Of a DNA stretch of 61,701 bases, positions 6,750-57,690 are shown piece by piece. The DNA is from Methanomicrobiales archaeon. GTDB lineage: Archaea; Halobacteriota; Methanomicrobia; Methanomicrobiales; JACTUA01. The DNA lies in NCBI GenBank assembly GCA_035517575.1, contig DATIYO010000012.1, positions 1 through 61,701 of the forward strand, written 5' to 3'. The notes under the pieces were generated by a model. The model saw only the letters and a program-made list of their open reading frames with translations. It ran no database searches and was not told the DNA's origin. The number at the start of each line of letters is the position of its first letter. The first letter of the stretch is position 1. The position numbers and the translations under genes are program-made.

Positions 6750-6772
6750 GGCGCGAGGTGGAAAATCCTTTC

Positions 6773-9050: not shown

Positions 9051-9057
9051 CCGGGAC

Positions 9058-10365: not shown

Positions 10366-10385
10366 AAGAGTCCCCCGTGCGCCGG

Positions 10386-11696
<1,311 letters not shown>

Positions 11697-11712
11697 CTAA
11701 TTAGCGTTTGCC

Positions 11713-12033: not shown

Positions 12034-12106
12034 AAGTACCGGTGAGAAGTACCGTGAGAAGTGGCATTTCGCGAGAGATGACACCCGGTCGCCGAGGGTG
12101 ACAGGG

Positions 12107-26203: not shown

Positions 26204-26318
26204 CCTCGAGAGGAACCGCCGGGCAAACCCTGGCGAGCTTCCGGAAGACGACAGGCCGGGCGGGAGATCCCCTGTCCGTCCCCCTGAAGGTTCCCCGCCC
26301 GGAACGGACGCGGTTATC

Positions 26319-27068: not shown

Positions 27069-27070
27069 GC

Positions 27071-30634: not shown

Positions 30635-30670
30635 CGCTACCCCCTTTACAGAAGGATGGGGAGGCGGCGG

Positions 30671-30681
30671 TATTAAAAGGG
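30671..30681 (-). promoter_or_regulatory. Putative TATA box (minus-strand CTTTTAATACC)
   Basis: This is the only AT-rich patch in the 81-nt gap. It lies ~40 nt upstream of ATG 30634. Confidence 0.3.
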
Positions 30682-30715
30682 TACGTGGCGGGAAAGGCGG
30701 GCGGGAGGGTTCCCT

Positions 30716-41052: not shown

Positions 41053-42171
41053 ATGAATATCCCCGCGGCGAAGATCTACTTTCCACCGGAGGACCGGCGG
41101 GATCTTGCACAGCAGATCGAGGGAATCCTCGCGAGCGGCCAGCTCACCCTCGGGAAGTACGGGAAGGAGTTCGAGGAGCGCTTCGCGGAGTTCACCGGCA
41201 CGGCCCATGCCGTCTGCGTGAACAGCGGGACCTCGGCCCTCGAGATCATCCTCCGCTCCCTCGGGGTGAAGGACGCGACGGTCATCGTCCCGACGAACAC
41301 CTTCTTTGCCACTCCCGCCTCGGTCATCCACGCGGGCGGACGGGTCAGGTTCGTGGACGCGAGCCCGAACCTCGACATGGACCCCGCGGCCGTGGACCGG
41401 GCCATCGACCGGACCACGAAGGGGGTCATCCTGGTCCACATCGGCGGGGCCGTCGCCCCCCAGGTGCGGGAGATCCGCGAGATCTGCGGGGACCGCGGCC
41501 TCTTCCTCGTCGAGGACGCCGCCCACGCCCACGGGAGCACCCTCGGGGGGAGGAAGGCGGGGTCCTTCGGCGTCGCGGGGGCCTTCTCCTTCTACCCCAC
41601 GAAGGTGATGACGAGCGGCGAGGGGGGCATGATCACGACCGACGATAAGAAGCTCTATGACCAGGCGCTCGTCCTGAGGGACCAGGGGAAGGCGGGCTTC
41701 CTCGGCAACATCCACACCGGCATGGGCTACAACTGGCGGATGAGCGAGATCCATGCCGCCATCGGCCTCTCCCAGTTCAGGAGGCTCGGGGAGTTCATCG
41801 CGGCACGGCGGCGGATCGCCGCCATTTACGACAGGGAGCTCGCGGGCATCCCGGACATCACCCCCATCCCCGTCGACCCCTCGGGGGAGTCCAACTACTA
41901 CAAGTACTGTGCGCTCCTCGCGGACGGGAAGGACCGGGCGGCGGTGAAGAAGGAGCTCAGGGAGAAGCACGGCGTGAGCCTGTCGGGGGAGGTGTACGAA
42001 CTCCCCTGCCACCTCCAGCCCGTCTTCAAGGAGGGCGGGGGCCCGGGCGAGGGGCAGTTCCCCGTGGCAGAGGACCTCTGCCGGAGGCATGTCTGCCTCC
42101 CCGTGTACGCGACCATGAAGGATGAGGAGGCAAGGTACGTGACAGACGCGTTGAGGAAGGTGCTCGCATGA
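41053..42171 (+). CDS. DegT/DnrJ/EryC1/StrS-family PLP sugar aminotransferase (copy 2)
   Basis: Motifs are GTSALEI, VEDAAHAHGS and FSFYPTKVMTSGEGG. It is clearly paralogous to copy 3 (46881..47987), and both share CHLQP near the C-terminus. Confidence 0.85.
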   Translation: MNIPAAKIYFPPEDRRDLAQQIEGILASGQLTLGKYGKEFEERFAEFTGTAHAVCVNSGTSALEIILRSLGVKDATVIVPTNTFFATPASVIHAGGRVRFVDASPNLDMDPAAVDRAIDRTTKGVILVHIGGAVAPQVREIREICGDRGLFLVEDAAHAHGSTLGGRKAGSFGVAGAFSFYPTKVMTSGEGGMITTDDKKLYDQALVLRDQGKAGFLGNIHTGMGYNWRMSEIHAAIGLSQFRRLGEFIAARRRIAAIYDRELAGIPDITPIPVDPSGESNYYKYCALLADGKDRAAVKKELREKHGVSLSGEVYELPCHLQPVFKEGGGPGEGQFPVAEDLCRRHVCLPVYATMKDEEARYVTDALRKVLA

Positions 42172-43070
42172 CGATCCTCGTCACCGGCGGCTCGGGGTTC
42201 ATCGGGTCCCACATCATCGACCAGCTCCTCGCGAAGGGCGAGGACGTGGTCATCTTCGACTTCGTGCAGCCCAGGTACTGGAAGTCGGTCAAGCACTTCT
42301 ACGGGAGCATCCTGAACCTGGACGAGCTCGAGCGGGCGATGCAGGGCGTGGACGTCGTCTACCACCTCGCGGCCATCGCCGACGTGAAGGACGTCTTCGA
42401 GCACCCGCACTACTCCGAGCGGGTGAACACCTCGGGCACCCTGAACGTCCTCGAGGCGGCGAGGAAGATGGGGGTCGGGCGGGTCATCTACGGGAGCACG
42501 GACTGGGTCTACCAGACCACCGACTCCGAGTCCGTGGACGAGACGACGCCGATCAGGACGCCCGCCCACCTCTACTCGTCGACCAAGCTCGCCTCGGAGT
42601 TCTACTGCCAGAACTACGGGGACCTCTACGGCGTGAAGTACACCATCCTCCGGTACGGCATCCCCTACGGCCCGAGGGCGAGGCCGGGGGCCATCGTCCC
42701 GATCTTCGTCGATAAGGCCCTGAAGGGCGAGGAACTCACCATCGCGGGCGACGGCGGCCAGTTCCGGCAGTTCATCTACGTCGAGGACCTCGCCGCGGGG
42801 AACGTGGCCGCCCTCCAGAAGGTCGCCGAGAACAAGATCTACAACCTCGACGGCCAGCGGCCCGTCACGGTGAAGGAGGTGGCCGAGGCGGTGATGAAGA
42901 TCATCGGGAAGGTCGGCATCAGGTACGTCCCCTCGAGGCCGGGGGACTTCCGGGGCAGGAAGGTCTCCTCCGAGAAGGCGAAGAAGGAGCTCGGCTGGGA
43001 GGCCACGACGCCCCTCGAGGAAGGGATCAGGAAGTACCTGGCATGGCTGAAGGCGACCGGCCAGGCCTGA
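42168..43070 (+). CDS. NAD-dependent epimerase/dehydratase (UDP-hexose 4-epimerase-like)
   Basis: Motifs are MTILVTGGSGFIGSH, YSSTKLASE and RYGIPYGPR. The ATGA overlaps the upstream stop. Confidence 0.8.
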   Translation: MTILVTGGSGFIGSHIIDQLLAKGEDVVIFDFVQPRYWKSVKHFYGSILNLDELERAMQGVDVVYHLAAIADVKDVFEHPHYSERVNTSGTLNVLEAARKMGVGRVIYGSTDWVYQTTDSESVDETTPIRTPAHLYSSTKLASEFYCQNYGDLYGVKYTILRYGIPYGPRARPGAIVPIFVDKALKGEELTIAGDGGQFRQFIYVEDLAAGNVAALQKVAENKIYNLDGQRPVTVKEVAEAVMKIIGKVGIRYVPSRPGDFRGRKVSSEKAKKELGWEATTPLEEGIRKYLAWLKATGQA

Positions 43071-43169
43071 TGAGCCGGATGCAGGACCGGGCACGGCCAC
43101 GCACGGCGGCGGGGGCCACGGGGAACGGCCCCGCTCCCCGCGGGCTCCCGGCAGGGGGATGAACCGGGG

Positions 43170-44261
43170 ATGAACACCCTTTTTCCGTCGATATCCTCGA
43201 ACCGCGAGCGGGACTATAACCGGGTCACCGGCCGGCTCGGGGCCATGGCGTACGAGCTGAAGCGGGGGAACCTGGTCCCCCACCTCGTGGACCGGATCAA
43301 GTGGAACCTCGCGCCGCGGCTCCACCACGTCGTCGGGTTTCCCACCCACGCCGACATCGAGACCGCGGTGAGCTGCCAGATGAGCTGCCCGATGTGCAGG
43401 CGCCGGCAGATGCCCGCGGACCTCCTCCAGGGGCTCATGGACTTCGGCCTCTTCAGGAAGATCATCGACGAGTGCGCGGAGAGGGGCCTCTACTCGGTGA
43501 AGCTCTCCTGGAGGGGGGAACCCCTCCTCAACCCCGACATCGCCGCCATGGTCCGGTACGCGAAGGAGAAGGGCATCCGGGACGTGGCGTTCCTCACGAA
43601 CGGCGAGCGGCTCACCAGGGAGATCTCCGCGGCGCTCGTCGACGCGGGCCTGGACTGGATCAGCATCTCCGTTGACGGCACGGGGGCGACCTACGAACGG
43701 ATCCGGTCCCCGTCGACCTACAAGGGGATCGTGGAGAAGGTCACGGCCCTGAAGGAGATCCGGGACGAGCGGGGCCGGACAAAACCCCTCATCCGGGTCC
43801 AGACCATCTACGGCGCTATCCGGGACAACCCGTCCGAGTACTTCGGCTTCTGGGAGAAGGTCGCGGACAAGGTGTACATCATCGCCGACCAGGGGCGGGC
43901 GACCGCGGCGAAGTTCCCCCGGGACCGGAACTACGCCTGCCTGGAGCCGTGGCGGAGGATCGTCATCGGCTGGAACGGCCTCGTGCCGCAGTGCATCTGC
44001 GACTACGACGACAGGAACCCGCTCGGCGACGTGAACCGCGAGAGCATCCATGCCATCTGGCATGGGAAGAGATTCAACGAGCTGCGTGCATCCCTCCTCA
44101 GGGGCGATCTCTTCATGAACCAGGTCTGCTGCGACTGCCACGATACGGGAGTCATGTACGAGAAGAAGATACACATCGGGGATCGGGAGATGACCATCGG
44201 GCTGTACCAGGGGCAGGAGCTCGACCTCGCCACCCTCGGGAAGCAGGAGCCCTCGCCATGA
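43170..44261 (+). CDS. Radical SAM protein with a SPASM/twitch-like C-terminal domain (paralogue of 27811..28788)
   Basis: The CX3CX2C motif CQMSCPMC lies at nt 43374-43397. WRGEPLLNPDIAAMVRYAKEKG follows, then the auxiliary motif CLEPWRRIVIGWNGLVPQC (Cx12Gx4C) and CCDC. Confidence 0.85.
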   Translation: MNTLFPSISSNRERDYNRVTGRLGAMAYELKRGNLVPHLVDRIKWNLAPRLHHVVGFPTHADIETAVSCQMSCPMCRRRQMPADLLQGLMDFGLFRKIIDECAERGLYSVKLSWRGEPLLNPDIAAMVRYAKEKGIRDVAFLTNGERLTREISAALVDAGLDWISISVDGTGATYERIRSPSTYKGIVEKVTALKEIRDERGRTKPLIRVQTIYGAIRDNPSEYFGFWEKVADKVYIIADQGRATAAKFPRDRNYACLEPWRRIVIGWNGLVPQCICDYDDRNPLGDVNRESIHAIWHGKRFNELRASLLRGDLFMNQVCCDCHDTGVMYEKKIHIGDREMTIGLYQGQELDLATLGKQEPSP

Positions 44262-44923
44262 AGGTGCTCGTCATCGCCCCCCACATGGACGACGAGGTGC
44301 TCGGGGCCGGGGGCACGATTGCCCGCCACGTGGCTGACGGCGACGACGTCACCGTCTGCATCGTCGCGCACCGGGTCTACGGGCACCGGTTCGACGAGAA
44401 GAAGAACCGGGTCGAGGTCGCGTGCGCGAACTCGGCGAGGAAGGTGCTCGGCTACCGGAAGACGACGTTCCTCGACCTTCCCGATGAACGGCTCGACGGG
44501 TGCCTCCAGGAGGTCCTGATCGGGCTCGAGAAGCAGCTGGAGAAAACCGGCCCGGAGGTCGTCTATGTCCCCCACCGGGGCGACATCAACCAGGACCACC
44601 GCGCCGTCTTCCAGGCGGCGATGATCGCCCTCCGGCCCCACGCGAGCCCGGGGGTCCGCCGGGTCCTCTCGTACGAGGTCCCCTCCTCGACCGACCAGGC
44701 ACCCCCGTTCCCCGAGTATGCCTTCCTCCCGAACTGCTACGTGAACATCGCGGACTTCCTGGAGAAGAAGCTCGAGGCCTTCCGCTGCTACCGGACCGAG
44801 GCGCGCCCCTTCCCCCATCCCAGGTCCGACGAGGGGCTCGCCACCGTGGCGAGGAAGCGGGGCACGGAGTCGGGGTTCCCCGCCGCCGAGGCCTTCGTCA
44901 TCGTGAGGGACCACCGGGCCTGA
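44258..44923 (+). CDS. PIG-L/LmbE-family N-deacetylase
   Basis: The tail of track ORF 43949..44923 starts at ATG 44258 (ATGA overlap). Motifs are MKVLVIAPHMDDEVLGAGGTI and HRGDINQDH. Confidence 0.8.
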   Translation: MKVLVIAPHMDDEVLGAGGTIARHVADGDDVTVCIVAHRVYGHRFDEKKNRVEVACANSARKVLGYRKTTFLDLPDERLDGCLQEVLIGLEKQLEKTGPEVVYVPHRGDINQDHRAVFQAAMIALRPHASPGVRRVLSYEVPSSTDQAPPFPEYAFLPNCYVNIADFLEKKLEAFRCYRTEARPFPHPRSDEGLATVARKRGTESGFPAAEAFVIVRDHRA

Positions 44924-44927
44924 TCCC

Positions 44928-45989
44928 ATGATCACCACCTGCTTCCGGGCCGATGCCTCCGTCGGGGTCGGGACCGGGCACCTCATGGAGTGCCTGACCC
45001 TCGCGGAGTCCTTCGGCCGGACCCTCTCCTCGGGCTCCCTCTTCCTCGTGAACGGGTTCGGGCCGGCCACGAGAGCCATCGGGGAGAAGGGGTACCCGTG
45101 CCGGATCGTGCCCGCGGGGATGTCCCAGGGAGAGGAAGCGGCGTGGGTCACGGAGACCGCGGGGGAGGCGGGGGCGAGGCTCATCGTCTGCAGCCTGCTC
45201 GGGCGGGACGATTCCTTCTACCGTGCCCTCAGGAGAAAAGGGGCCACCGTCCTCGCCATCCTCGACGATGCCGGCCCCACGCCGGTCCCCGCTGACCTCA
45301 TGGTGAACTTCAGCGTCCTCCAGGACGAGTCCCTCTACCGCCGGTACGGGGGCTCGGGCACCCGGTTCCTCCTCGGGCCGCGGTTCATGCCCATGGGGGA
45401 GGAGTTCCACGGCTACTGGTCCCGCCGCCGGCCGGTCCCCGAGGTCGCGGGGACGATCTTCGTGAACCAGGGCGGGAGCGACCCCTTTGGCCTCACCGCG
45501 AAGATCCTCCGCGCCCTCGAGCTCCTCGACCTCCCCCAGGAGATCGTGGTCGTCGTCGGGAGCGCCGTCACGGACGCCCACCGGCGGGAACTGAAGGCCA
45601 TCGGGAAGGAGTCGGGGAACACGTACTCGTTCGCCTGGGGGGTCACCCCGCGGGAGATGGGGGAGATCATGGACCGGTCAGACCTCGCCGTCACGGCCGC
45701 GGGGAACACCCTCTACGAGCTCGCCATCTTCGGGGTCCCCTCGATCATCGTCTCCCACCACGAGCGCCACCTCGCGGTCGCGGAGCGGTTCGCGGCGCTG
45801 GGGGCCGGCGTGAACCTGGGCATCGGCCCCACCCTGCCCGGGGCGGAGATCGCCCGGGCGGTCGGGAGGCTGCTCGGGTCGAGGGAGGAGCGGCAGGCCC
45901 TCTCGGACCGGATGAAGGGGATCGGGGACGGGCTCGGCTGCCAGAGGATCGCGGAGGCGGTGAAGTCGCTATGGCAAGGATCTTCCTGA
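44928..45989 (+). CDS. pseG: PseG-like UDP-sugar hydrolase (GT28-like fold; SpsG/PseG family)
   Basis: CFRADASVGVGTGHLMECLTLAE is the PseG N-terminal signature. NQGGSDPFGLT and a C-terminal GT-B half are also present. Confidence 0.65.
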   Translation: MITTCFRADASVGVGTGHLMECLTLAESFGRTLSSGSLFLVNGFGPATRAIGEKGYPCRIVPAGMSQGEEAAWVTETAGEAGARLIVCSLLGRDDSFYRALRRKGATVLAILDDAGPTPVPADLMVNFSVLQDESLYRRYGGSGTRFLLGPRFMPMGEEFHGYWSRRRPVPEVAGTIFVNQGGSDPFGLTAKILRALELLDLPQEIVVVVGSAVTDAHRRELKAIGKESGNTYSFAWGVTPREMGEIMDRSDLAVTAAGNTLYELAIFGVPSIIVSHHERHLAVAERFAALGAGVNLGIGPTLPGAEIARAVGRLLGSREERQALSDRMKGIGDGLGCQRIAEAVKSLWQGSS

Positions 45990-46897
45990 CCGGCGGGAGC
46001 GGGTACCTCGGGGGCGCCCTCCTCGGCGCGCTCCCCCGCGGCTGGGAGGTGGTCGCCCTCGGGAGGCGGCCGCCCGCGGGGAAGCTCCCTCCGTCGGTCC
46101 GGTTCGTGGCGGGCGACCTCGTCTCCCCCGACTGGGACCCGTCGGCGGTCGGGGGATGCGACGCGATCCTCCACCTCGCCGCCGTGAAGGGGGCGGACTC
46201 CTGCGCGGACAGTCCCTCCGAGGCCGTCGAGGTGAACGTCCTCGGGACCCACCGGCTCATCCGCGCCGCGCTCGCATACCGCGTCCCGCGGTTCGTCCTC
46301 GCCTCCACGTACTGGGTGTACGGCGGGCGGGCCGAGCCCCCCTTCGGCGAGGAGATGCCGGTCGCCCCCGAGGAGCTGTACGGGCTCACCAAGGCCGTCT
46401 CGGAGCTGGAGCTCGCCGGTTCGGGTCTCGACTACACGATCCTCCGGTTCGCGAACATCTTCGGGCAGGGGGCGGGGACCGGCCGCGAGGAGGTGGTCTT
46501 CCACTTCGTGACGAACGCCCTCAGGGGCGACCCCGTCAGGATCGACGGGGACGGGAGCCAGGAACTGGACTTCATCGATGTCGCGGACGTGGCAGGGGTC
46601 CTCGCGGCCGTGACCATGGACCCGAGGGCGTCCCGCCAGGTCTTCAACATCGGGTCCGGCCGGCCCGTGAGCATCCTCGACCTCGCGAACCGGATCCGGG
46701 CCATCGTCGGGGAGATGCGGGGCGCGGAGGTGCCGGTCGAGCGGCGGGGCCCGCCCGCTCCCCGCAGGGTCCGGCGGTTCGTCTCGATGGAGAAGTTCGG
46801 GAGGGCCTTTCCCGAGGTCCGCCTGACCCCGCTCGACGAATCCCTCAGGAGATACACCGCGATCCGGGAGGCTGAACTGCATGGTACAGGTCGCTAG
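45971..46897 (+). CDS. NAD(P)-dependent SDR epimerase/reductase (RmlD-like features)
   Basis: Motifs are MARIFLTGGSGYLGGAL, ASTYWVYGG and YGLTKAVSE. It overlaps pseG by 19 nt. Confidence 0.7.
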   Translation: MARIFLTGGSGYLGGALLGALPRGWEVVALGRRPPAGKLPPSVRFVAGDLVSPDWDPSAVGGCDAILHLAAVKGADSCADSPSEAVEVNVLGTHRLIRAALAYRVPRFVLASTYWVYGGRAEPPFGEEMPVAPEELYGLTKAVSELELAGSGLDYTILRFANIFGQGAGTGREEVVFHFVTNALRGDPVRIDGDGSQELDFIDVADVAGVLAAVTMDPRASRQVFNIGSGRPVSILDLANRIRAIVGEMRGAEVPVERRGPPAPRRVRRFVSMEKFGRAFPEVRLTPLDESLRRYTAIREAELHGTGR

Positions 46898-47987
46898 GCC
46901 TTATTTCAGGGACAGGGAGAAGATCCTCGGGAGGATCGCGAAGATCCTCGAGTCGGGCAGGCTGATGAACGGCGAGAACACCGCGGCCTTCGAGGCGGCC
47001 TTTGCCCGCACCTGCGGCGCGCGGCACGCCGTCTCCGTGAACTCCTGCACGACGGCCCTCGAGATCACCCTCCGCTCCCTCGACCTCCGCGGGGGCGAGG
47101 TGATCGTACCCGTGAACACCTTCATCGCGACCCCGAACTCGGTCATCTTCGCCGGCGGGAAACCCGTCCTTGCCGAGGTGAAGGAGGGGTCGTACAACCT
47201 CGGCATCGACGAGGTCCAGGAGAAGATCGGGCCCGCGACCCGCGCGGTCATCGCGGTCCACATCGCGGGGGTCGTCTGCGAGGACATCCTCGCGATCCGG
47301 AAACTCTGCGACGAATCGGGGGTCGCGCTCATCGAGGACTGCGCCCACGCGGTGGGGGCGACCCTCGGCGGGAGGATGGCGGGGACCTTCGGGCTCGCCG
47401 GCTGCTTCTCCTTCTACCCGACGAAGGTCATGACGACGGGGACCGGCGGGATGATCCTCACGGGGTCAGACGAGCTGGACGCCTTTGCGCGGAGCGCCCG
47501 GCTCCATGGCGCGAGCGGGAAGGGCACGAGCGAGATCGTGAACGTCGGGAACGACTGGTTCATGGACGAGATCCGGGCGGCGCTCGGCATCGGCCAGCTG
47601 GAGGACCTGGACTTCCAGCTCCGGCGGAGGAGGGAGGTGGCGAAGGCCTACCGGGCCCTGGTCGGCGAGCTCGACGGGTTCTCCTGCTTCCCGCTCCCGA
47701 AGGGATCGGTCCCCGCCTGGTACAAGTTCCCGGTCCAGGCAGGGGAGACCGTCCACCTGCCCCGCCTGAAGCAGCGGGCCTCTGAGAAGTTCCAGCTGGA
47801 GCTCGAGGCGGTTTACTGGCCGACCTGCCACCTCCAGCCGTATTACCGGCGGCTGTTCGGGTTCCGCGAGGGGGATTTCCCGACGAGCGAGGCGATCCTC
47901 TCGCGGCAGGTCTGCCTCCCGATCCACGGGCTCGTGACCGACGAGGACATCCACCAGGTGGCGGCGGCCGTGCGGGGCTCCCTATGA
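46881..47987 (+). CDS. DegT/DnrJ/EryC1/StrS-family PLP sugar aminotransferase (copy 3)
   Basis: Motifs are CTTALEI, IEDCAHAVGA and FSFYPTKVMTTGTGG. It overlaps the upstream SDR by 17 nt. Confidence 0.85.
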   Translation: MVQVARPYFRDREKILGRIAKILESGRLMNGENTAAFEAAFARTCGARHAVSVNSCTTALEITLRSLDLRGGEVIVPVNTFIATPNSVIFAGGKPVLAEVKEGSYNLGIDEVQEKIGPATRAVIAVHIAGVVCEDILAIRKLCDESGVALIEDCAHAVGATLGGRMAGTFGLAGCFSFYPTKVMTTGTGGMILTGSDELDAFARSARLHGASGKGTSEIVNVGNDWFMDEIRAALGIGQLEDLDFQLRRRREVAKAYRALVGELDGFSCFPLPKGSVPAWYKFPVQAGETVHLPRLKQRASEKFQLELEAVYWPTCHLQPYYRRLFGFREGDFPTSEAILSRQVCLPIHGLVTDEDIHQVAAAVRGSL

Positions 47988-48706
47988 TGGTCGGGATCCA
48001 CCAGCCCATGTACCTTCCCTGGCTCGGGTACTTCGACAAGATCCACCGGTGCGACACCTTCGTGATCCTCGACGACGCCGCTTACTCCCGGAATTACTTC
48101 GTCAACCGGAACCGGATCAGGACCAGGGAGGGCTGGATGTGGCTCACGGTCCCCGTACGTTCCAGCGGCCGGTTCGGGCAGCCCATCAACCAGGTCGAGG
48201 TGGACCAGGGCAGGCGCTGGCAGGCCAGGCACTGGCGGAGCATCGGCTACTCGTACGGGAACGCCCCCTTCTTCGGGGAGTACTCGGCGTTCTTCGAGGA
48301 GTTCTACGCGGGGGACCATGCCCGCCTCCAGGCGGTGCTCATGGATCCCCTCAGGTTCCTCCTGGAGTCCCTCGGCATCGGGACGAGGATCCTCCTCTCC
48401 TCCGAGCTCGGGGTGAAGGGCACGAAGGACGAGCGCCTCCTCGCCATCTGCCGCGAGCTCGGGGCCGACTCCTACCTCTCTGGCCCGTCGGGGAAGGACT
48501 ACCTGGACCCCGTCCCCTGGGAGGCCGAGGGCATCGCGGTGCACTTCCACGACTACCGCCACCCCGTGTACCCCCAGGTCCAGGGCGGCGACTTCGTCCC
48601 CGAGATGTCGGTGATCGACCTCCTCTTCAACTGCGGCGGGGACAGCCTCCGGGTCCTCACCGAATCCCAGCCGGACTACGGGGCGAAGGCCGCGGGGGGT
48701 GCCTGA
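47984..48706 (+). CDS. WbqC-family protein
   Basis: MMVGIHQPMYLPWLGYFDKIHRCDTFVILDDAAYSRNYFVNRNRI is the characteristic WbqC N-terminus. The ATGA overlaps the upstream stop. Confidence 0.7.
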   Translation: MMVGIHQPMYLPWLGYFDKIHRCDTFVILDDAAYSRNYFVNRNRIRTREGWMWLTVPVRSSGRFGQPINQVEVDQGRRWQARHWRSIGYSYGNAPFFGEYSAFFEEFYAGDHARLQAVLMDPLRFLLESLGIGTRILLSSELGVKGTKDERLLAICRELGADSYLSGPSGKDYLDPVPWEAEGIAVHFHDYRHPVYPQVQGGDFVPEMSVIDLLFNCGGDSLRVLTESQPDYGAKAAGGA

Positions 48707-49770
48707 TGACGTCCGCCGACGAGCGGATCAGGGCGCTCTTCGCGGGGGAAGACCACGTCTTCCTCATCGCCGAGGCAGGCTGCAACTACGAGGGGGACTT
48801 CGCCCGGGCGGAGGAGATGGTCAGGGCCGCGGCAGGGGCGGGCGCCGATGCCATCAAGTTCCAGACCTTCGTCCCCGAGCGGCTCGTGACGAGGGACGCG
48901 CCCAAGTTCTGGGACATCGAGGGGTGCCCGGGGGCCACCCAGTTCGAGGAGTTTGCACAGACCCCCCAGCTCGTCGAGGCCCAGTACCGCGCCCTGAAGC
49001 GGATCGCAGACGAGGAGGGGATAGTCCTCTTCTCGACGCCCTCGGACGAGAGCTCGGCCGACATGCTCGACGCGCTCGGCCTCCCCCTCGAGAAGATCAG
49101 CTCCATGGACATCACCCACCTCCCCCTGATCCGGCACATCGCGCGGATGGCGAAGCCCGTCATCCTCTCCACGGGGGCCTCGACCATGGACGAGATCCGC
49201 GAGGCGGTGACCGCCATCGAGGGGGAGGGGAACGACCGGATCGCCCTCCTCCACTGCATCACGAGCTACCCCACGCGGCCGGAGGACGTGAACCTGAACA
49301 TGATGAAGGCCATCATGGAGGAGTTCCCCGGATATCCGGTGGGCTACTCGGACCACACGACGATGCCCGAAAGCACGGGGGTGATCACGGCGGCGGTTGC
49401 CCTCGGGGCCCGGGTCATCGAGAAGCACTTCACCTTCGACCGCACCCGGCCGGGGTACGACCACGCGATATCGGCCGATTACCATGATCTCGCCGAGATG
49501 GTGAGGCAGATCTCCTTCACCCGCGGGCTCCTGGGGAGCGGCGTGAAGGCCCCCGTCGGCGCCGAGGAGCGGGCCCGGGCCTGGGCGCGGAGGAGCGTCG
49601 TCGCCCGGGTCCCCATCCCCCGCGGGACGCGGATCACCGGGGAGATGCTCGTCGTCAAGCGGCCGGGCACGGGGATACCCCCGAAGCATCTCGAAGGCCT
49701 CGTCGGCAGGGTGGCGGCCGTGGACATCGCCGGGGACCAGGTGATCACCTGGGAGATGATCGGCCGGTGA
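48706..49770 (+). CDS. NeuB-family nonulosonic acid synthase (NeuB/PseI/LegI/SpsE-like) with a SAF domain
   Basis: The tail of track ORF 48049..49770 starts at ATG 48706, overlapping the WbqC stop by 1 nt. Motifs are FLIAEAGCNYEGDFARAEEMVRAAAGAGADAIKFQTF, ILSTGAS, LLHCITSYPT and GYSDHT. The SAF C-terminus reads RSVVARVPIPRGTRIT...KRPGTGIPP. Confidence 0.85.
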   Translation: MTSADERIRALFAGEDHVFLIAEAGCNYEGDFARAEEMVRAAAGAGADAIKFQTFVPERLVTRDAPKFWDIEGCPGATQFEEFAQTPQLVEAQYRALKRIADEEGIVLFSTPSDESSADMLDALGLPLEKISSMDITHLPLIRHIARMAKPVILSTGASTMDEIREAVTAIEGEGNDRIALLHCITSYPTRPEDVNLNMMKAIMEEFPGYPVGYSDHTTMPESTGVITAAVALGARVIEKHFTFDRTRPGYDHAISADYHDLAEMVRQISFTRGLLGSGVKAPVGAEERARAWARRSVVARVPIPRGTRITGEMLVVKRPGTGIPPKHLEGLVGRVAAVDIAGDQVITWEMIGR

Positions 49771-49813
49771 CCCGCCGGGGCAGGGGGCGGAGAGGGGGAG
49801 CGAGGTTCCCGTC

Positions 49814-52408
49814 GTGAAGGTCGTCGCCGTCATCCAGGCGCGCATGGGCTCGCGGCGGCTGCCCGGGAAGTCCCTGATGGAGATCGGGGGCATCCCCCTC
49901 CTCCGGTACGTCATCGAGCGGGTGAAACAGGCAAAGACCGTCGGGAGGGTCGTCCTCGCGACGAGCACGGCGCCCGAAAACGACCCGCTCTGCACCCTCG
50001 CGGAATCCCTCGGCATCGGCGTGTACCGCGGTTCGGAGGAGGACGTCCTCTCGCGGTTCAGGGAGGTCGCGCGGGAGACCGGCGCGGACCTCGTCGTCAG
50101 GATCTGCGCCGACAACCCGCTCGTGGACGGGGGGGAGATCGACCGGGTCGTCGATCACCACATCCGGACCGGATCGCAGTACTCCTTCAACCATGTCCCG
50201 ACCTGCAGGAACCGGTACCCCGACGGGCTCGGCGCCGAGGTGATCAACGCCGACCTCCTCGCGGCTCTCGATCCGGCCTCCCTCACGCCCGAGGACCGGG
50301 AGCATGTCACCGTCAGGTTCAGGAAGCCTGCGGCCGGGATCTCCGTCGGCGAACCCGGGGCACCCGCGGAGATCCTCGGGCCGGACATCAGGCTCGACAT
50401 CGACACTTCCGACGACTTCGGGCGGATGAAGGGCTTCATCGAGTCCCTGCCGGGAGAACGGAGCCCGTCCTGGACCGCGGAGGAGATCGTCCGGTCGTAC
50501 CGTGCATACTTCGGGAGCAGGGTGATCGTCCTCCTCGGCAGCGGGGAAGATGCGCGGGCCTACTGCTCCCGCTACCAGGGAAAGATCGCGGGCGGGATCC
50601 CCCTCGTCGCATCGCCAGGGGCCTGGTGGGAGCTCGAGAAGCGGGGGATCCCCTGCCTCCTCATCCAGGACTGCTTCGACCGGATGGAGATCTACCGGCT
50701 CGGCATGGAGAATTACCGCAAGGCCGAACAGGTCTGCAGGGCCGTGGATGGGGCGCTCGGAAGGTCGCCCGGGAAAAAGGACGGCGCGGTCGGGCTCCAC
50801 CACCTCGAACCGGCGATGGCCGACTTCTGCCAGGTGAAGTTCCTCCTCGACAATCTCAGCATCAGGGCGAACCTCCTCGGTAAAATCGCGCAGCGGGAGC
50901 GGCCCGACCTCGTCGTCGTCGTGGTCAACCCCGAAGACCAGGAACCTCTCAACCAGAACCCCGACGCGTACCTGGGGGACGAGTGCAACTGGTTCCCCGC
51001 TCTCCTTGAACTCGGGGCAGGCGGGTGCCGGTTCACGACCCTCGAGTATCATGAGGGCGGGAAACAGGGCACCGGGACGGCGCCCCTCACCTCGGGGCAG
51101 GGACGGCTGCGCGATGTCCTCACCCGCTCGGCCATCCTCCATCCCGTCCTCTATACCCTCAGGTTCCACGGATTCTGGAGAGCTCTTCGGGTCCTGCCCT
51201 CGTCCATCATGAACCGGCTCCGGCGCGGGAGGACCCTCCTCCTCCTCGGTTTCGGGTACGACTGGAACCGGATGCTTCCGGAGCTCTCGCTCAGGGGCTA
51301 TTCCGTCCACCCTCTTCTCCCGGAAGAACCTGCAGACGGAGAAAGGGTACCCGTCGATACCTCGTGGGAAGAGGAGGCGAGGCCGCTTCTCCTCTCGGGC
51401 GGGGTCGACCTCTCGCCCCCGATCTTCTCCTACCTTGCCCTCAGGCTGGAGAAGACCCTGGGGGGCATTCCCGGGTGGGTCGAACAGGTGAGGCAGGCCG
51501 TCGGGTCGGCCGGGCCGCTCGCGCTCCTCTCGGGGCCGCGGCAGATGGCGAGGGAGCAGCTCGTCGCGGGGATCGCCCGCTCGCACGGGGTGCCGGTGGT
51601 CACCTGGCAGCACGGGGCCTACGGCGCCCACCGCGCGCCCGTCATGCTCTACACCGAGTTCATGAACTCCGACGTCGTCCTCCTCTGGGGGAGCGGGGTG
51701 AAGGAGACGATGGGGAAGGACGAGCTCAACCGCTTTCCCTGCCGCATGGAAGCCGTCGGGTCCTGCGAACTCCAGGAACTCTACCGCAACCGAAAGGTGA
51801 AGCCTCGCGGGGGGCCGGTCCTCTACGCGACCACCGGATACTACGGGAACGAGCTCTACGTGAGCTACGAGTATCCCGTCCATGACAACGAACTCTGGGC
51901 GACCCAGAAGGCGATCATCGATGCGCTGGGGAACCGGCAGCCTGCCGTCGTCAAGCTCCACCCGTCGGCGAAGGACCAGGAGCAGTTCGAGGGGTTCATC
52001 CGGATGCGCGGGTACCGGAACCTCGCCGTGGCTCACGGGGCGGAGGTGACTTTCACCGGGTACCTGGAGAGGGCCGGAGCGGTGATCATCGACCTGCCCA
52101 CGGGGACGACGCTCCTCCAGGCGATCGCGTCGGGAAAGCCCGTTTTTGTCCTGACGAAATACCTGTCCTTCCTCCCCGAGGCGCTGGAGCTCCTGAAGAA
52201 GCGGGCCTTCTGCAGCCCCGATATCGGGGAGTTCACCGGCCTCGTGGCGGCGTACCTCGAGGGGAAGCCGCTGGACCAGAGCCCGGATCCGGAAAACACC
52301 GCGTTCCTCGAGAGGTACGGGATCGGGAAACCCGACGGCGGGGTATCGGAGCGGGTGCTCGGGGTCCTCGCGGAACCGGGCAGAAAGGCCGGGCCCCGTT
52401 CACCGTGA
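49814..52408 (+). CDS. Fusion protein: an N-terminal SpsF/COG1861-type cytidylyltransferase plus a ~620-aa uncharacterised KLHP-motif (GT-B-like) domain
   Basis: The GTG start gives MKVVAVIQARMGSRRLPGKSL...RICADNPLVD...RLDIDTSDDF (about aa 1-235). An uninterrupted frame then runs to aa 864. It carries VVKLHPS (nt 51953-51964) and AVIIDLPTGTTLLQAIASGKPVFVL. Confidence 0.7.
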   Translation: MKVVAVIQARMGSRRLPGKSLMEIGGIPLLRYVIERVKQAKTVGRVVLATSTAPENDPLCTLAESLGIGVYRGSEEDVLSRFREVARETGADLVVRICADNPLVDGGEIDRVVDHHIRTGSQYSFNHVPTCRNRYPDGLGAEVINADLLAALDPASLTPEDREHVTVRFRKPAAGISVGEPGAPAEILGPDIRLDIDTSDDFGRMKGFIESLPGERSPSWTAEEIVRSYRAYFGSRVIVLLGSGEDARAYCSRYQGKIAGGIPLVASPGAWWELEKRGIPCLLIQDCFDRMEIYRLGMENYRKAEQVCRAVDGALGRSPGKKDGAVGLHHLEPAMADFCQVKFLLDNLSIRANLLGKIAQRERPDLVVVVVNPEDQEPLNQNPDAYLGDECNWFPALLELGAGGCRFTTLEYHEGGKQGTGTAPLTSGQGRLRDVLTRSAILHPVLYTLRFHGFWRALRVLPSSIMNRLRRGRTLLLLGFGYDWNRMLPELSLRGYSVHPLLPEEPADGERVPVDTSWEEEARPLLLSGGVDLSPPIFSYLALRLEKTLGGIPGWVEQVRQAVGSAGPLALLSGPRQMAREQLVAGIARSHGVPVVTWQHGAYGAHRAPVMLYTEFMNSDVVLLWGSGVKETMGKDELNRFPCRMEAVGSCELQELYRNRKVKPRGGPVLYATTGYYGNELYVSYEYPVHDNELWATQKAIIDALGNRQPAVVKLHPSAKDQEQFEGFIRMRGYRNLAVAHGAEVTFTGYLERAGAVIIDLPTGTTLLQAIASGKPVFVLTKYLSFLPEALELLKKRAFCSPDIGEFTGLVAAYLEGKPLDQSPDPENTAFLERYGIGKPDGGVSERVLGVLAEPGRKAGPRSP

Positions 52409-54529: not shown

Positions 54530-54566
54530 CCGGTGTCCCCATGAACCGGCCGCGGCGGTGTCCCTG

Positions 54567-55442
54567 ATGGCAGACCCACTCACCCGGGTGGAGTTCACGC
54601 ACCTCGACAAGGTCCTCTACCCCGCGGCGGGGATCAGGAAGCTCGAGGTGGTCAGGTACTTCATCCGGATGGCCCCGCGGATGCTCCCCTTCCTCAAGGG
54701 CCGGCCCATCGTCCTCACGCGATACCCCGACGGGGCGGGGGCGAAGGGCTTCTACGAGAAGGACGCGCCGATGGGGACCCCCGACTGGGTCGAGACCTTC
54801 GCCCACTGGTCCGAGACGGCGGAGCGGACGGTCCACTTCATCGTCTGCAACAACCTGGACACGCTCCTCTGGATCGCGAACCTCGACGCCCTGGAGATCC
54901 ACATGATCCTCGCCCCGACCCGCACCCCCGGGAACCCGGACCTCCTCTTCATTGATCTGGACCCCGAGCCGCCGGCGACCACCGCCGACGCGGCCAGGAT
55001 CGCCCTCCTGGTCCGGGACCGGCTCGCCTCCCAGGGCGTGCGGATCTCCGTGAAGACGTCGGGGAAGCGGGGCTTCCACATGGTCGTCCCCCTCGTCCCG
55101 GGCCTCACCTATGCCGAGGTCCGGGGCTTCGTCCACGCGATGGGGCGCGAGCTCGCCCGGGAGGACGCCCTCGTCGCATCCGAGGCGCCCGGCCCCTCGA
55201 ACCCGGGGAAGGTCTTCGTCGACTACGGCCAGAACAGCCACGGCCGGACCATGGTCGCCCCCTACAGCCCCCGCGCCACCCCCGCGGCGACGGTCTCCGC
55301 GCCGGTCTCCTGGGAGGAGGTGGGCAAAGGGATAAACCCCGGTGACTTCCATATCAGGAGTGTCCCCGAGCGGCAGGAGGACCCCTGGGAGGGCATCCTC
55401 CGGCACCGGCAGGGACTGCCCGGAGGAGGGAGGCCCGGTTGA
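54567..55442 (+). CDS. NHEJ polymerase/primase (LigD Pol domain, archaeo-eukaryotic primase superfamily)
   Basis: This is track ORF 54558..55442, which starts at GTG. The alternative ATG is at 54567. The sequence reads LTRVEFTHLDKVLYP...RYPDG...FYEKD...DLDP...KTSGKRGFHMVVPL...VDYGQN. Confidence 0.8.
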   Translation: MADPLTRVEFTHLDKVLYPAAGIRKLEVVRYFIRMAPRMLPFLKGRPIVLTRYPDGAGAKGFYEKDAPMGTPDWVETFAHWSETAERTVHFIVCNNLDTLLWIANLDALEIHMILAPTRTPGNPDLLFIDLDPEPPATTADAARIALLVRDRLASQGVRISVKTSGKRGFHMVVPLVPGLTYAEVRGFVHAMGRELAREDALVASEAPGPSNPGKVFVDYGQNSHGRTMVAPYSPRATPAATVSAPVSWEEVGKGINPGDFHIRSVPERQEDPWEGILRHRQGLPGGGRPG

Positions 55443-56293
55443 AGAAGGAGAAGAAGGGCGTCGCGGCCGGGACCGCGACCGCGGAACCGAAGGTCGAGGA
55501 GGCGAGGCCGGCTGAGAGGAAGACCCCGCGGCCCATCTGGAGCGGCGCGGTGAGCATCGGCCTCGTGAACGTGCCGGTCAAGGCCTACCCGATGACCCGG
55601 GACCTCGCGGTGCACTTCCACCTCCTCCACCGGAAGGACGGCCAGCCCCTCAGGTACGAGCGGGTCTGCACCCGCGACGGCGTGGTGGTCCCCTGGGAGG
55701 AGACCGTGAAGGGGTACGAGGTGCGGAAGAACGAGTTCATCGTCCTCGAGAAGGAGGAGCTCCGGGCCGCCCTCCCCGAGTCCGACAGCCGGATCCGGAT
55801 CGACAAGTTCGTCCACTACCTCTCCCTCGACCCCGTGTACTTCGAGAACTCCTTCGTCCTCGTCCCCGACGGGGTGCCCGATGCCTACGCCCTCCTCTTC
55901 ACCGTCTGCCAGGAGCTCGGCGAGGCGGGGGTCGGCCGCTTCACCATGCGGACGAAGGAGTACCCCGCGGTCGTCCACGCGTACCACGGCGCCCTCATCC
56001 TCACCACCCTTCGGTACGCGAACGAGGTCATCGATCCCGCGAGTTTCGGGGAGCTCGCGGGCCTCGCGGCCCCGGCAGGGAAGCAGCTCGATCTCGCGAA
56101 GAAGATCATCACGGACCTCACGGGCGAGCTCGACATCTCCGAGTACCACGACACCTACCGCGAGCGGGTCCTCGCCATCATCGAGAAGAAGCGGTCGGGG
56201 GAGACCATCCGGGTGGAGAAGCCCAGGGCGGCCGAGGTGAAGGAGCTCATGGCCGCCCTCGAGGAGACCGTCGCGAAGCTCGGGAAGCAATGA
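55439..56293 (+). CDS. ku: Ku DNA-end-binding protein
   Basis: The start is TTG 55439, which overlaps the Pol stop and is preceded by ggaggagggagg. Motifs are RPIWSGAVSIGLVNVPVKAY, VVPWEETVKGYE, FVLVPD and AVVHAYHGALILTTLRYANEV. Confidence 0.85.
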   Translation: MKKEKKGVAAGTATAEPKVEEARPAERKTPRPIWSGAVSIGLVNVPVKAYPMTRDLAVHFHLLHRKDGQPLRYERVCTRDGVVVPWEETVKGYEVRKNEFIVLEKEELRAALPESDSRIRIDKFVHYLSLDPVYFENSFVLVPDGVPDAYALLFTVCQELGEAGVGRFTMRTKEYPAVVHAYHGALILTTLRYANEVIDPASFGELAGLAAPAGKQLDLAKKIITDLTGELDISEYHDTYRERVLAIIEKKRSGETIRVEKPRAAEVKELMAALEETVAKLGKQ

Positions 56294-57690
56294 CCCCCCG
56301 CTACCGCCCGATGCTCGCCCGCACCGCCGAGGCCCCCTTCTCGTCGCCCGACTGGATCTTCGAGGTGAAGTGGGACGGGATCCGGGCCATCGCGTACGCG
56401 GGGGAGGCCCTCTCTCTCCTCTCGCGGAACGGGACCGAGATGGCCGGCCGGTTCCCCGAGCTCCGCGAGATCCTGGAACTCGCGCCCGGCTGCGTCCTCG
56501 ACGGCGAGATCGTCCTCCTCCACGAGGGGACGAACGACATGCAGGCCCTCCTGGGCCGGTTCCAGGAGACCGACCCGCGCGAGATCGAGGCAGACTCCCT
56601 CGCCCTCCCCGTGACCTACGTCGCCTTCGACATCCTGGAGAAGGACGGGAAGCCCCTGGTCCGCCTCCCCCTCGAGGAGCGGCTGGGGATCCTCGGGGAG
56701 AGCGTGGAGGAGGGGAAGTACCTGGTCCGTTCCATCGCCGTGCGGGGTGAGGGGGAGCGGTACTTCGCCGAGGTGGTGAAGCGGGGCCTCGAGGGGGTGA
56801 TGGCGAAGCGCCTGGGGACCCCGTACGAACCCGGGGCGAGGAGCGACTCCTGGCTGAAGGTGAAGGCCGTGAAGACCCTCGACGGGGTGGTCTTCGGGTA
56901 CACGAGGGGCGCAGGGGCGCGGGCGGGGAGCTTCGGCGCCCTCGTCCTCGGGCTCTGCGACGGGGGCGAGGGGGTGTACATCGGCAGGGCGGGGACCGGC
57001 TTCGACCAGGCCGACCTCGGGAGCATCCTCGCCGCCCTCGCGCCCTTCCGGTCGGAAACCCCGACCCTCCAGGGAGCGGAACCCGGCGAGATCACCTGGG
57101 TCCTCCCGCGCATGGTCGTCGAGGTCGCCTACCACTCGGTGACCCGGGAGGGGCGGCTCCGCATGCCCCGGTTCATCAGGGTCCGGACCGACAAGGCACC
57201 TGCGGACTGCACCCCCGACCAGCTCGGCACCGCCCGAAACCTTCTTCCGTACCAGGGGAAGAGAGACTTCACCATGACGCCCGAACCGCGGGGGAAGAAG
57301 GCGGAGGCACCTGCGGGGAACTCCTTCGTCGTCCACGAGCACCATGCGAGGCACCTCCACTTCGACCTCCGGCTGGAGCGGGACGGGGTGCTCAAGTCCT
57401 GGGCGGTCCCGAAGGGCATCCCCGAAGCGACGGGGGAGAAGCACCTCGCCGTGCATGTCGAGGACCATCCCCTCGAGTACGGGACCTTCCAGGGGACCAT
57501 CCCCGAGGGGGAATACGGGGCGGGGACCGTCTCGATCTGGGACTCGGGGACGTACGACACCCTCGTCTGGAAGGAGGACAAGGTGGAGGTGGTCTTCCAC
57601 GGGAACCGGCTCCATGGACGGTATGCCCTCGTGAAGTTCAGGCGGGCCGGGGACAAGGACTGGCTTTTATTGAAGGCCGGCGACGACTGA
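56290..57690 (+). CDS. ATP-dependent DNA ligase (LigD ligase domain) fused to a C-terminal 3'-phosphoesterase (PE) domain
   Basis: The ATGA overlaps the ku stop. Ligase motif I is EVKWDGIRA (adenylation Lys codon 56368-56370). Other ligase motifs are VAFDIL, EGVMAKR, WLKVK and RMPRFIRVRTDK. The PE domain reads YQGKRDFTMTPEP...FVVHEHHARHLHFDLRLE...SWAVPKG...HPLEY. Confidence 0.85.
   Translation: MTPRYRPMLARTAEAPFSSPDWIFEVKWDGIRAIAYAGEALSLLSRNGTEMAGRFPELREILELAPGCVLDGEIVLLHEGTNDMQALLGRFQETDPREIEADSLALPVTYVAFDILEKDGKPLVRLPLEERLGILGESVEEGKYLVRSIAVRGEGERYFAEVVKRGLEGVMAKRLGTPYEPGARSDSWLKVKAVKTLDGVVFGYTRGAGARAGSFGALVLGLCDGGEGVYIGRAGTGFDQADLGSILAALAPFRSETPTLQGAEPGEITWVLPRMVVEVAYHSVTREGRLRMPRFIRVRTDKAPADCTPDQLGTARNLLPYQGKRDFTMTPEPRGKKAEAPAGNSFVVHEHHARHLHFDLRLERDGVLKSWAVPKGIPEATGEKHLAVHVEDHPLEYGTFQGTIPEGEYGAGTVSIWDSGTYDTLVWKEDKVEVVFHGNRLHGRYALVKFRRAGDKDWLLLKAGDD

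Follow-up and report, generated by a model that had tools for sequence, protein, structure and literature searches.

An archaeal gene cassette for a probable non-canonical route to a nonulosonic acid, shared with distant bacterial phyla

The stretch of DNA analysed here, called the window, is the complete 61,701-bp contig DATIYO010000012.1 of a Methanomicrobiales metagenome-assembled genome (MAG). A cassette of about eleven genes at 41053-52408 of the window probably serves a non-canonical route by which a nonulosonic (sialic-acid-like) sugar is built, activated with cytidine monophosphate (CMP) and transferred. The cassette comprises, in order, a DegT aminotransferase, a short-chain dehydrogenase/reductase (SDR), a radical SAM/SPASM enzyme, a PIG-L deacetylase, a PseG-like hydrolase, a second SDR, a second DegT, a WbqC-family protein, a NeuB-family synthase, an SpsF-like cytidylyltransferase and a LIC12162-type domain (Table 1). 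Judged from its sequences, it resembles the sps-type and pseudaminic acid (Pse)-type pathways, departs from the Pse, legionaminic acid (Leg) and sps models at the dehydratase and the acetyltransferase, and stays below the equivalog cutoff at all other steps. The cassette is a real, uncharacterised variant of nonulosonic acid (NulO) biosynthesis.

The GC content of the window is 69%, and real genes are distinguished by a GC content at the third codon position (GC3) of 0.85-0.97. The seven genes at 44258-52408, which an initial annotation of the window had delimited as the module, all lie on the plus strand and all have the high GC3 typical of real genes; their successive junctions, from PIG-L to the CTP_transf_3 fusion, measure +4, -19, -17, -4, -1 and +43 nt. 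Checks by open reading frame, Pfam, NCBIfam and junction agree with the coordinates, families and coupling given for them, and the neighbours named alongside (rmlA/C/B, the radical SAM enzyme, ATP-grasp and AsnB) are in place. The ATG of NeuB at 48706 overlaps the WbqC stop by 1 nt and agrees with relatives of 354 aa; a start at 48703, for which an exact-sequence look-up was empty, was discarded in its favour. The limits of the module had been drawn too narrowly, since DegT-1, SDR-1 and the radical SAM gene (41053-44261) accompany the seven genes in bacterial and archaeal loci alike. The functional unit is the whole cassette, of which the seven genes form the downstream two-thirds (3' part).

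Table 1. Positions of the cassette genes and of other features of the window, with the family matches that define them.
Feature	Position	Strand	Match
DegT-1, PLP aminotransferase, 372 aa, first cassette gene	41053-42171	+	DegT_DnrJ_EryC1 358 bits
SDR-1, extended SDR, 300 aa, 4-nt overlap with DegT-1	42168-43070	+	Epimerase 189.5 bits
Radical SAM/SPASM enzyme, 363 aa, stop overlapping PIG-L start by 4 nt	43170-44261	+	Radical_SAM 60.6, SPASM 42.1 bits
PIG-L/LmbE-family metal-dependent N-deacetylase (predicted), 221 aa	44258-44923	+	PIG-L 74.7 bits
PseG-like nucleotide-sugar hydrolase (predicted), 353 aa, GT-B/GT28-like	44928-45989	+	TIGR03590 123.9 bits
SDR-2, extended SDR, 308 aa	45971-46897	+	Epimerase 136.6, RmlD_sub_bind 85.4 bits
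DegT-2, PLP aminotransferase, 368 aa	46881-47987	+	DegT 336.4 bits
WbqC-family protein, 240 aa	47984-48706	+	PF08889 259.3 bits
NeuB-family nonulosonic acid synthase with SAF domain, 354 aa	48706-49770	+	NeuB 260.4, SAF 55.8 bits
CTP_transf_3 fusion, 864 aa, whole gene	49814-52408	+	CTP_transf_3 84.5 bits
SpsF-like (COG1861-type) cytidylyltransferase domain of the fusion	49814-50500	+	CTP_transf_3 84.5 bits
LIC12162-type domain of the fusion (~630 aa), probable GT-B transferase with CMP-activated donor	50501-52408	+	orthologues with PF27859
Second module: cyclase (arylformamidase-like), HAD, methyltransferase, FabG-like SDR, CTP_transf_3, radical SAM/SPASM, extended SDR, PGDH/glyoxylate-reductase-like 2-hydroxyacid dehydrogenase, NanM-type sugar O-methyltransferase	24061-31930	-	
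Second CTP_transf_3, stand-alone	27071-27814	-	best match PseF 56.8 bits
Second radical SAM/SPASM, 35% identical to the first	27811-28791	-	
ATP-grasp gene	17626-18777		
AsnB gene	19879-21738		

Eleven neighbourhoods were sampled from the NeuB subfamily (55-65% identity; many bacterial phyla and archaea), and in ten of them the cassette gene set recurs, its order only slightly shuffled. Their CTP_transf_3 genes are short (205-224 aa), their LIC12162 proteins measure 570-685 aa, and a flippase is usually present as well. Carriers include a Desulfotomaculum-labelled contig, a Chloroflexota-labelled contig, Planctomycetia, Micrarchaeota and an 83%-identical relative of the window, the phyla being Bacillota, Chloroflexota, Planctomycetota and DPANN archaea; the loci examined yielded no cultured organism with the full cassette. 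As the same cassette occurs across distant phyla, it is evidently widespread and mobile or horizontally shared, and the methanogen-specific framing of the initial annotation gives way to this distribution. It is extremely improbable that the genes form no functional unit at all and lie together by chance, are decayed or stem from a chimeric assembly. The metagenome-assembled source is the sole support for that reading; against it stand intact reading frames with high GC3, overlaps of 1-19 nt at junctions, conserved catalytic motifs and near-identical synteny in many unrelated assemblies, which effectively refutes it.

Three checks address the enzymes missing from the cassette. Pfam was run over essentially all high-GC3 open reading frames outside 6668-15128, NCBIfam (TIGRFAM-derived Pse/Leg/Neu equivalogs) was run on 30 island proteins, and six-frame BLAST was applied to the window with three probes, namely a genuine PseB, a PseH-like GNAT from Pseudoalteromonas denitrificans (locus L064) and an Acetyltransf_9 protein from an Altiarchaeota locus (L001). 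In the scanned reading frames, Pfam returns neither a GNAT/Acetyltransf match nor a stand-alone hexapeptide transferase, and BLAST with the three probes finds no match in the window, leaving it without a PseH-type GNAT by either method. The sole left-handed beta-helix in the window is the tail of RmlA, and no LegH-type acetyltransferase of this fold was found. This tail was considered as the lost acetyltransferase, with the Halorubrum LegH as precedent, and rejected: the protein is a true rmlA_long (471 bits, cutoff 320), followed by RmlC and RmlB, and fails the bifunctional model, with Hexapep at 24.7 (cutoff 27) and archaeal bifunctional GlmU (Arch_glmU) at 258 (cutoff 292), aligned to 329/393. 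Neither SpsM (PglF/CapD-type dehydratase, T-x9-M/Y-x3-K) nor an SpsD acetyltransferase was found in the contig.

In NCBIfam, no window protein attains a Pse, Leg or Neu equivalog cutoff. On the dehydratase models, PseB (TIGR03589, cutoff 407.75) gives at best 69.8 for SDR-1 and 35.8 for SDR-2, and LegB (TIGR04180, cutoff 475) gives 124.7 (SDR-1), 69.7, 78, 160.9 and 121.1 across the five non-Rml SDRs. The aminotransferase models score 243.5 for DegT-1, 213.7 for DegT-2 and 316.3 for a further DegT at 36511 with PseC (TIGR03588, cutoff 423.5), and 206.5 (DegT-1), 173.7 and 227 with LegC (TIGR04181, cutoff 420). With PseF (TIGR03584, cutoff 205.7), the SpsF-like domain scores 27.9 and the second cytidylyltransferase 56.8. 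A GNAT, a functional hexapeptide acetyltransferase and a PseB/LegB-type dehydratase are undetectable in the 61.7 kb, and this holds for the contig. The initial annotation had claimed as much from the letters of the sequence: its missing GNAT or left-handed-beta-helix N-acetyltransferase is borne out by Pfam, NCBIfam and BLAST, its missing PseB/LegB 4,6-dehydratase by models, SDR motifs and BLAST, and the hidden Markov model searches it had proposed uncovered no equivalog-level PseB/C/F/G/H/I or LegB/C/I among the island proteins scanned. Absence from a contig is not proof of absence from the genome, because in Bacillus subtilis the dehydratase gene spsM sits at a locus separate from spsA-L (PMC7439481).

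The window holds six extended SDRs, each with Polysacc_synt_2 as a secondary match. SDR-1 scores 82.6 bits on RmlD_sub_bind and 84.5 bits on Polysacc_synt_2 in addition to its Epimerase match; a role as LegB-like dehydratase, which the Polysacc_synt_2 score would allow, was rejected on motif grounds. In the alignment, the reference motifs are STDEVYG in the RmlB of the window and STDKA in the true PseB of L064 (549 bits). SDR-1 has STDWVY (ST[D/T/I]WVY in orthologues), with no conserved Asp/Glu or Asp/Lys dehydratase pair, and the motif of SDR-2, STYW[VI]YG, is conserved among its orthologues with the dehydratase dyad absent. The nearest solved structures are GalE 4ZRM and UXS for SDR-1 and 6WJ9/6WJB for SDR-2, that is, 4-epimerases and UXS, not PseB/LegB. 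By these motifs, SDR-1 and SDR-2 lack the acid/base residues for 4,6-dehydration.

Each DegT of the cassette is translationally coupled to an extended SDR. DegT-1 and DegT-2 are 40% identical and both carry the Schiff-base lysine motif SFYPTK; together with the DegT at 36511, they are DegT-family proteins with the pyridoxal phosphate (PLP) lysine. Orthologues of DegT-1 (32-68% identity) are the first cassette gene at L002 and at L083-L089, and those of SDR-1 (53-83%) are present in all cassette loci. DegT-2 orthologues (42-60%) occur in all full cassette loci, while SDR-2 is swapped for a classical SDR in L088 and missing from L089.

The PseG-like protein is a clear homologue of PseG below the cutoff of its model (TIGR03590, E 9e-36, cutoff 153.55). 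It has the N-terminal GTGH motif (GxGH) and weak Epimerase_2 and Glyco_tran_28_C matches in Pfam, and no PDB sequence matches it. The NeuC-type LegG family, represented by Epimerase_2, reaches 27.0 against 30.6 over its C-terminal part only.

The NeuB homologue is well above the Pfam cutoffs for NeuB (22.1) and SAF (21). Among NCBIfam models it scores best on LegI/NeuB (TIGR03569, 335.6, cutoff 399.65), followed by PseI (TIGR03586, 248.5, cutoff 340.25), and its ranking in the PDB is SpsE 1VLI, the legionaminic acid synthase of B. subtilis (206 bits), Neisseria meningitidis NeuB (163) and PseI 8H2C (139). The N. meningitidis residues E25, K53, K129, Y186, H215, E234, H236, D247 and R314 are all identical, and the only change at a catalytic or metal residue is E134D (KISSMD), which is reported to be typical of archaeal and eukaryotic synthases (PMC8208679). 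With SpsE closest and the catalytic residues intact, the protein does not fall outside the NulO clade, an outcome that the initial annotation had named as fatal to its proposal. Scores on the NeuB and PseI models were considered as a predictor of stereochemistry and set aside, as the L064 synthase, which lies in a true Pse cluster, scores alike (349.6 and 240.5).

In the 864-aa fusion, which is identical to NCBI HUK37632.1 and has a 57%-identical orthologue named 'SpsF' by one source, the SpsF-like domain matches PDB 6OEW ('cytidylyltransferase') with 89.5 bits over residues 1-210. The SpsF-like part is a separate gene of 205-224 aa in L002, L083-L085 and L087-L089. It is adjacent or fused to LIC12162 in all full cassettes, fused in the window and in L086, and an SpsF-like N-terminus is found on nine of ten long LIC12162 representatives, down to 26% identity. 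This adjacency and fusion argues for a coupling of CMP-activation with transfer. The assignment of the remaining ~630 residues comes from relatives: precomputed PF27859 LIC12162 matches exist for fusion orthologues (56-63% identity) as well as for the neighbouring proteins in L002 and L083-L089, and TIGR04331 (LIC12162) gives 18.8 bits on the window protein against a cutoff of 225. The family forms 728 representative clusters. Among 61 of its members, four match Glyphos_transf (best 6.5e-9), one PolyST and one Capsule_synth, so that a weak relationship to the TagF, polysialyltransferase and KpsS-type GT-B enzymes, which use CMP or CDP donors, may be drawn. A deep LIC12162 profile finds no match in the PDB; the low-confidence AlphaFold 2 (AF2) model, with a predicted local distance difference test score (pLDDT) of 38.5, matches almost solely GT-B transferases in Foldseek. 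The domain is probably a GT-B transferase with a CMP-activated donor. Two further large proteins of the window have no Pfam match. The 629-aa protein at 33560-35449 (minus strand) was tried as a LIC12162-domain paralogue, a relationship that is not detectable; it matches another Leptospira family, TIGR04326 ('LIC13510 surface carbohydrate biosynthesis'), weakly instead (88.9, cutoff 250). The other, at 16220-17629 (plus strand), has a faint match to the VimE deacetylase (28.8 bits) and no detectable LIC12162-domain paralogy.

PIG-L exceeds the cutoff of PF02585 (28.2) and carries the motifs PHMDDE and QDH, fitting the metal/catalytic pattern [AP]HxDD ... DH. Its top NCBIfam match is BshB1 (55, cutoff 182), and its orthologues are 42-62% identical across cassette loci. 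WbqC is matched by PF08889 over its full length (model positions 1-217 of 218) and has 24 invariant columns in common with 59 relatives; no NCBIfam model and no PDB sequence matches it. Its AF2 model is confident (pLDDT 93, predicted TM-score 0.90), and a Foldseek search of 350,542 PDB chains returned nothing significant (best E 0.47, TM < 0.3). As WbqC has neither a sequence nor a fold match, no function can be transferred to it, and no functional studies were found in the literature for WbqC, for LIC12162 or for radical SAM enzymes in combination with NulO.

A WbqC-profile genome scan returned >566 genome loci (>560 species-level genomes), and the best 80 loci were inspected. In 63-65 of these 80 (~80%), a PIG-L gene adjoins WbqC. 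NeuB lies near WbqC in 31, and 19 of those 31 have a true PseB; where NeuB is missing, WbqC lies in polysaccharide loci that encode a DegT and transferases of the GT4 and WecA types. In L064, a complete PseB, PseC, GNAT, SpsF-like, PseG and NeuB set is followed by a DegT-like/WbqC/PIG-L trio. Because the pair is appended to this complete Pse cluster and also occurs in non-NulO loci, WbqC and PIG-L (plus DegT) would be a general amino-sugar tailoring unit and not a literal substitute for PseH. The initial annotation had placed PIG-L and WbqC in the position of the missing enzymes, together with the ATP-grasp and AsnB proteins; the former are better described as a conserved pair that also accompanies complete PseB/PseC/GNAT/PseG clusters, and the latter lie outside the conserved cassette.

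The minimal cassette, in the Altiarchaeota locus L001, keeps the radical SAM, PIG-L, PseG-like and NeuB genes, and an Acetyltransf_9 gene replaces SDR-2, DegT-2 and WbqC. Upstream, at 1-6057 of L001, lie genes for a CTP_transf_3 protein, a phosphopantetheinyl transferase, an acyl carrier protein, an AMP-binding ligase, an inositol monophosphatase-like protein, PdxA and a glyoxalase; their annotations suggest a carrier-protein-dependent N-acylation of a NulO. The Acetyltransf_9 protein and the upstream acyl-carrier genes would fit an N-acyl remodelling around PIG-L.

The presence of PseG-, SpsF- and DegT-type genes, SpsE as the closest solved relative of the synthase, the separate spsM locus of B. 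subtilis and the restriction of the analysis to one 61.7-kb MAG contig would all accord with an ordinary sps-type Leg or Pse pathway, whose 4,6-dehydratase and N-acetyltransferase are encoded elsewhere and whose extra genes are tailoring enzymes. This is unlikely. Ten independent cassette loci of distant phyla have no such genes within ~10 kb (no GNAT or Hexapep acetyltransferase was found within that distance in the ten neighbourhoods), in contrast to the clear PseB in 19 of the 31 NeuB-bearing loci of the WbqC scan. Two SDR/DegT couples, a radical SAM enzyme and a deacetylase are useless to the standard pathway, and the enzymes shared with it all score below equivalog level.

The radical SAM enzyme matches both Radical_SAM and SPASM, with the cluster motif CxxxCxxC present as CQMSCPMC and six cysteines in the C-terminus. 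NCBIfam gives no equivalog for it, its best matches being generic SPASM maturases. It is present in every cassette locus, the minimal Altiarchaeota version included, and in L083 and L087 a CTP_transf_3 gene lies directly ahead of it. In TIGR04321 ('spiro-SPASM'), an SpsF-like and a radical SAM/SPASM part are naturally fused; the C-terminal part matches the radical SAM enzyme (43170-44261) and the N-terminal part the SpsF-like domain (49814-50300). In the manner of a Rosetta stone, this fusion hints that the radical SAM enzyme may act on a cytidylyl-activated substrate. In several bacterial cassettes, one to three genes for B12-binding radical SAM enzymes, typical C-methyltransferases, are inserted beside NeuB (L083 11132-13189; L084 11810-15966; L087 8560-10011 and 14342-17345); they are absent from the window. 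A preprint on free-amine NulOs also describes CMP-activated ulosonic acids with an extended carbon backbone (10.64898/2026.04.20.719630), and a link between these genes and such acids would be speculative.

In the proposed route, a nucleoside diphosphate N-acetylhexosamine would be oxidised and transaminated by the SDR and DegT couples to a diamino sugar, which the PseG-like hydrolase would free from its nucleotide. NeuB would condense the released sugar with phosphoenolpyruvate, and the SpsF domain would form the CMP-sugar and pass it on to the fused GT-B transferase. PIG-L would strip the GlcNAc-derived N-acetyl group, leaving at least one nitrogen free or with a non-acetyl group, and WbqC would most likely act on the unmasked amine or its carrier sugar. 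The radical SAM/SPASM enzyme might supply a redox, epimerisation or deoxygenation step otherwise done by PseB/LegB. The central claim of the initial annotation, a NeuB-centred sps/Pse-like NulO module, is supported by the families present and by the NeuB residues. Its suggestion of non-acetyl N-substituents is plausible and has a precedent in Ca. Kuenenia stuttgartiensis; the part that made WbqC, PIG-L, ATP-grasp and AsnB simple replacements needs correction.

A tentative extension of this proposal, put forward with clearly lower confidence, is that the cassette encodes an undescribed, widespread route to a new NulO class, whose members might bear an amine that is free or carries an unusual substituent, a third amino group, or a 9-hydroxyl that is kept. 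The radical SAM/SPASM enzyme, the RmlD-like SDR/DegT couples, PIG-L and WbqC would then replace the NAD-dependent 4,6-dehydratase and the acyl-CoA N-acetyltransferase that every known Pse and Leg pathway uses. WbqC would be an enzyme without a solved structural relative, and the cytidylyltransferase-glycosyltransferase fusion would channel the CMP-sugar.

The location of rmlA, rmlC and rmlB directly upstream of DegT-1/SDR-1, in the window and in the 83%-identical relative, raises another reading, that of a composite operon. NeuB, the PseG-like protein and SpsF-LIC12162 would make and transfer a simple Neu/Kdn-like acid, and the DegT/SDR proteins, PIG-L and WbqC would modify another amino sugar in the same glycan, such as a dTDP-4-amino-4,6-dideoxyhexose derived from the neighbouring RmlA/C/B. 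In its favour, both SDRs have good RmlD_sub_bind scores, polysaccharide loci that encode GT4 and WecA-type transferases but no NeuB contain the WbqC/PIG-L/DegT trio, and the Altiarchaeota locus keeps its four genes without any DegT or SDR. The reading is nevertheless quite unlikely: DegT-1/SDR-1 accompany bacterial cassettes that have no rml genes, the WbqC stop overlaps the NeuB start, in most loci SDR-2/DegT-2/WbqC separate the PseG-like gene from NeuB, and PseC is the best-scoring model for both DegT-1 and DegT-2.

Several points weigh against the proposed non-canonical NulO route itself. The window is a single MAG contig, and a PglF/SpsM-type dehydratase and an acetyltransferase may be encoded elsewhere. 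Two oxidoreductase/aminotransferase couples exceed the needs of a 5,7-diamino NulO made from GlcNAc. WbqC and PIG-L occur without NeuB in 49 of the 80 inspected loci, so they are not NulO-specific, and in L064 they stand beside a complete Pse pathway, so they need not act on a NulO precursor here. The roles of WbqC and the radical SAM enzyme are purely inferred, the fold search with WbqC being without a match, and the AF2 model of LIC12162 is poor.

The B. subtilis sps pathway to legionaminic acid (SpsM, SpsC, SpsD, SpsG, SpsE, SpsF; PMC7439481) shares with the window, at the level of families, a NeuB-family synthase and PseG-like, DegT and SpsF-type enzymes; it too has rml genes next door and a main cluster without the dehydratase gene. 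The window differs in having no SpsD-type acetyltransferase and no SpsM/PglF-type dehydratase, in adding the radical SAM/SPASM enzyme, PIG-L, WbqC and a second SDR/DegT couple, and in fusing its cytidylyltransferase to the LIC12162 domain. The Campylobacter/Helicobacter pathway (PseB, C, H, G, I, F) has in common with it a PseG-family hydrolase, DegT, a NeuB-family synthase and a cytidylyltransferase; the STDK-type inverting dehydratase and the GNAT PseH are absent from the window, and its proteins score below the Pse equivalog cutoffs. In Ca. Kuenenia stuttgartiensis, CMP-NulOs with one free and one formylated amine are tied to a Leg-like deacetylase cluster (10.64898/2026.04.20.719630), which has legB/legC-like genes, two cytidylyltransferases, a deacetylase between the early genes and neuB, O-methyltransferases nearby and a formyltransferase, with deacetylation at the nucleotide-sugar level. 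Compared by description, the window lacks the formyltransferase and has WbqC, the radical SAM/SPASM enzyme and a second SDR/DegT couple instead. The Leg pathway of Halorubrum sp. PV6 (PMC6137143), the characterised NulO route of archaea, shares the archaeal host, a NeuB-family synthase and a large glycosylation island, and its product serves surface glycosylation. It uses canonical LegB, LegC, LegH, NeuC-type LegG, LegI and NeuA-type LegF together with a formyltransferase, none of which the window has at equivalog level, whereas the window has PseG-type and SpsF-type enzymes.

NulO genes are rare in archaea and occur in <20% of 122 genomes; Pse was detected in Methanobrevibacter smithii, and Halorubrum has the canonical Leg pathway (PMC6137143). 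The NulO nature of the cassette is itself unsurprising, and the free-amine concept has a recent precedent. In the 2-deoxystreptamine route, the BtrN radical-SAM dehydrogenase, the BtrS DegT-type aminotransferase and the BtrD PIG-L deacetylase belong to families that together turn C-OH into C-NH2 and unmask a GlcNAc-derived amine. This route offers a mechanistic analogy only for the radical SAM/DegT/PIG-L combination; substrates and products are unrelated and no orthology is detectable.

Nonulosonic acids shape surface charge, phage/host recognition, and flagellar and S-layer assembly. To our knowledge, their known biosyntheses are all built on one six-step template, of which the cassette retains only the hydrolase, synthase and activation steps. 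It recruits three families without an assigned role in sugar chemistry, namely WbqC, the SPASM radical-SAM enzyme and LIC12162. A solution of the pathway would provide a function for WbqC and LIC12162 in the many genomes and clusters that carry them, would possibly account for some of the unannotated CMP-sugars seen in mass spectrometry, and would add to the little that is known of the sialic-acid-like sugars that methanogens carry on their surfaces.

Elsewhere in the window, the second module (Table 1) combines a CTP_transf_3 gene whose start overlaps the stop of the second radical SAM/SPASM gene with the other families listed there. Homologues come right after the cassette in L002, L083 and L086, comprising the cyclase, HAD, methyltransferase, CTP_transf_3, radical SAM/SPASM, SDR and 2-hydroxyacid dehydrogenase genes, accompanied by an HpcH/HpaI or HMGL-type aldolase. 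This gene content points to a second keto-acid activated by CMP, or to a substituent of the glycerate type. At 21755-23940 (minus strand), a TviB-like UDP-GlcNAc 6-dehydrogenase (356 bits) is paired with a TviC-like 4-epimerase (219 bits), which implies that UDP-GalNAcA may also be made in the island.

At 54558-57690 (plus strand), immediately downstream of the island, the window has a complete bacterial-type set for non-homologous end joining, a Ku/LigD system of a kind uncommon among archaea. It consists of a LigD primase-polymerase protein (249 bits), Ku (121 bits) and a protein in which an ATP-dependent ligase is joined to the LigD 3'-phosphoesterase domain. At 6668-9050 (plus strand), a winged-helix and FHA-like protein is encoded ahead of a membrane-anchored Ser/Thr protein kinase, both assigned by eye from the translation.

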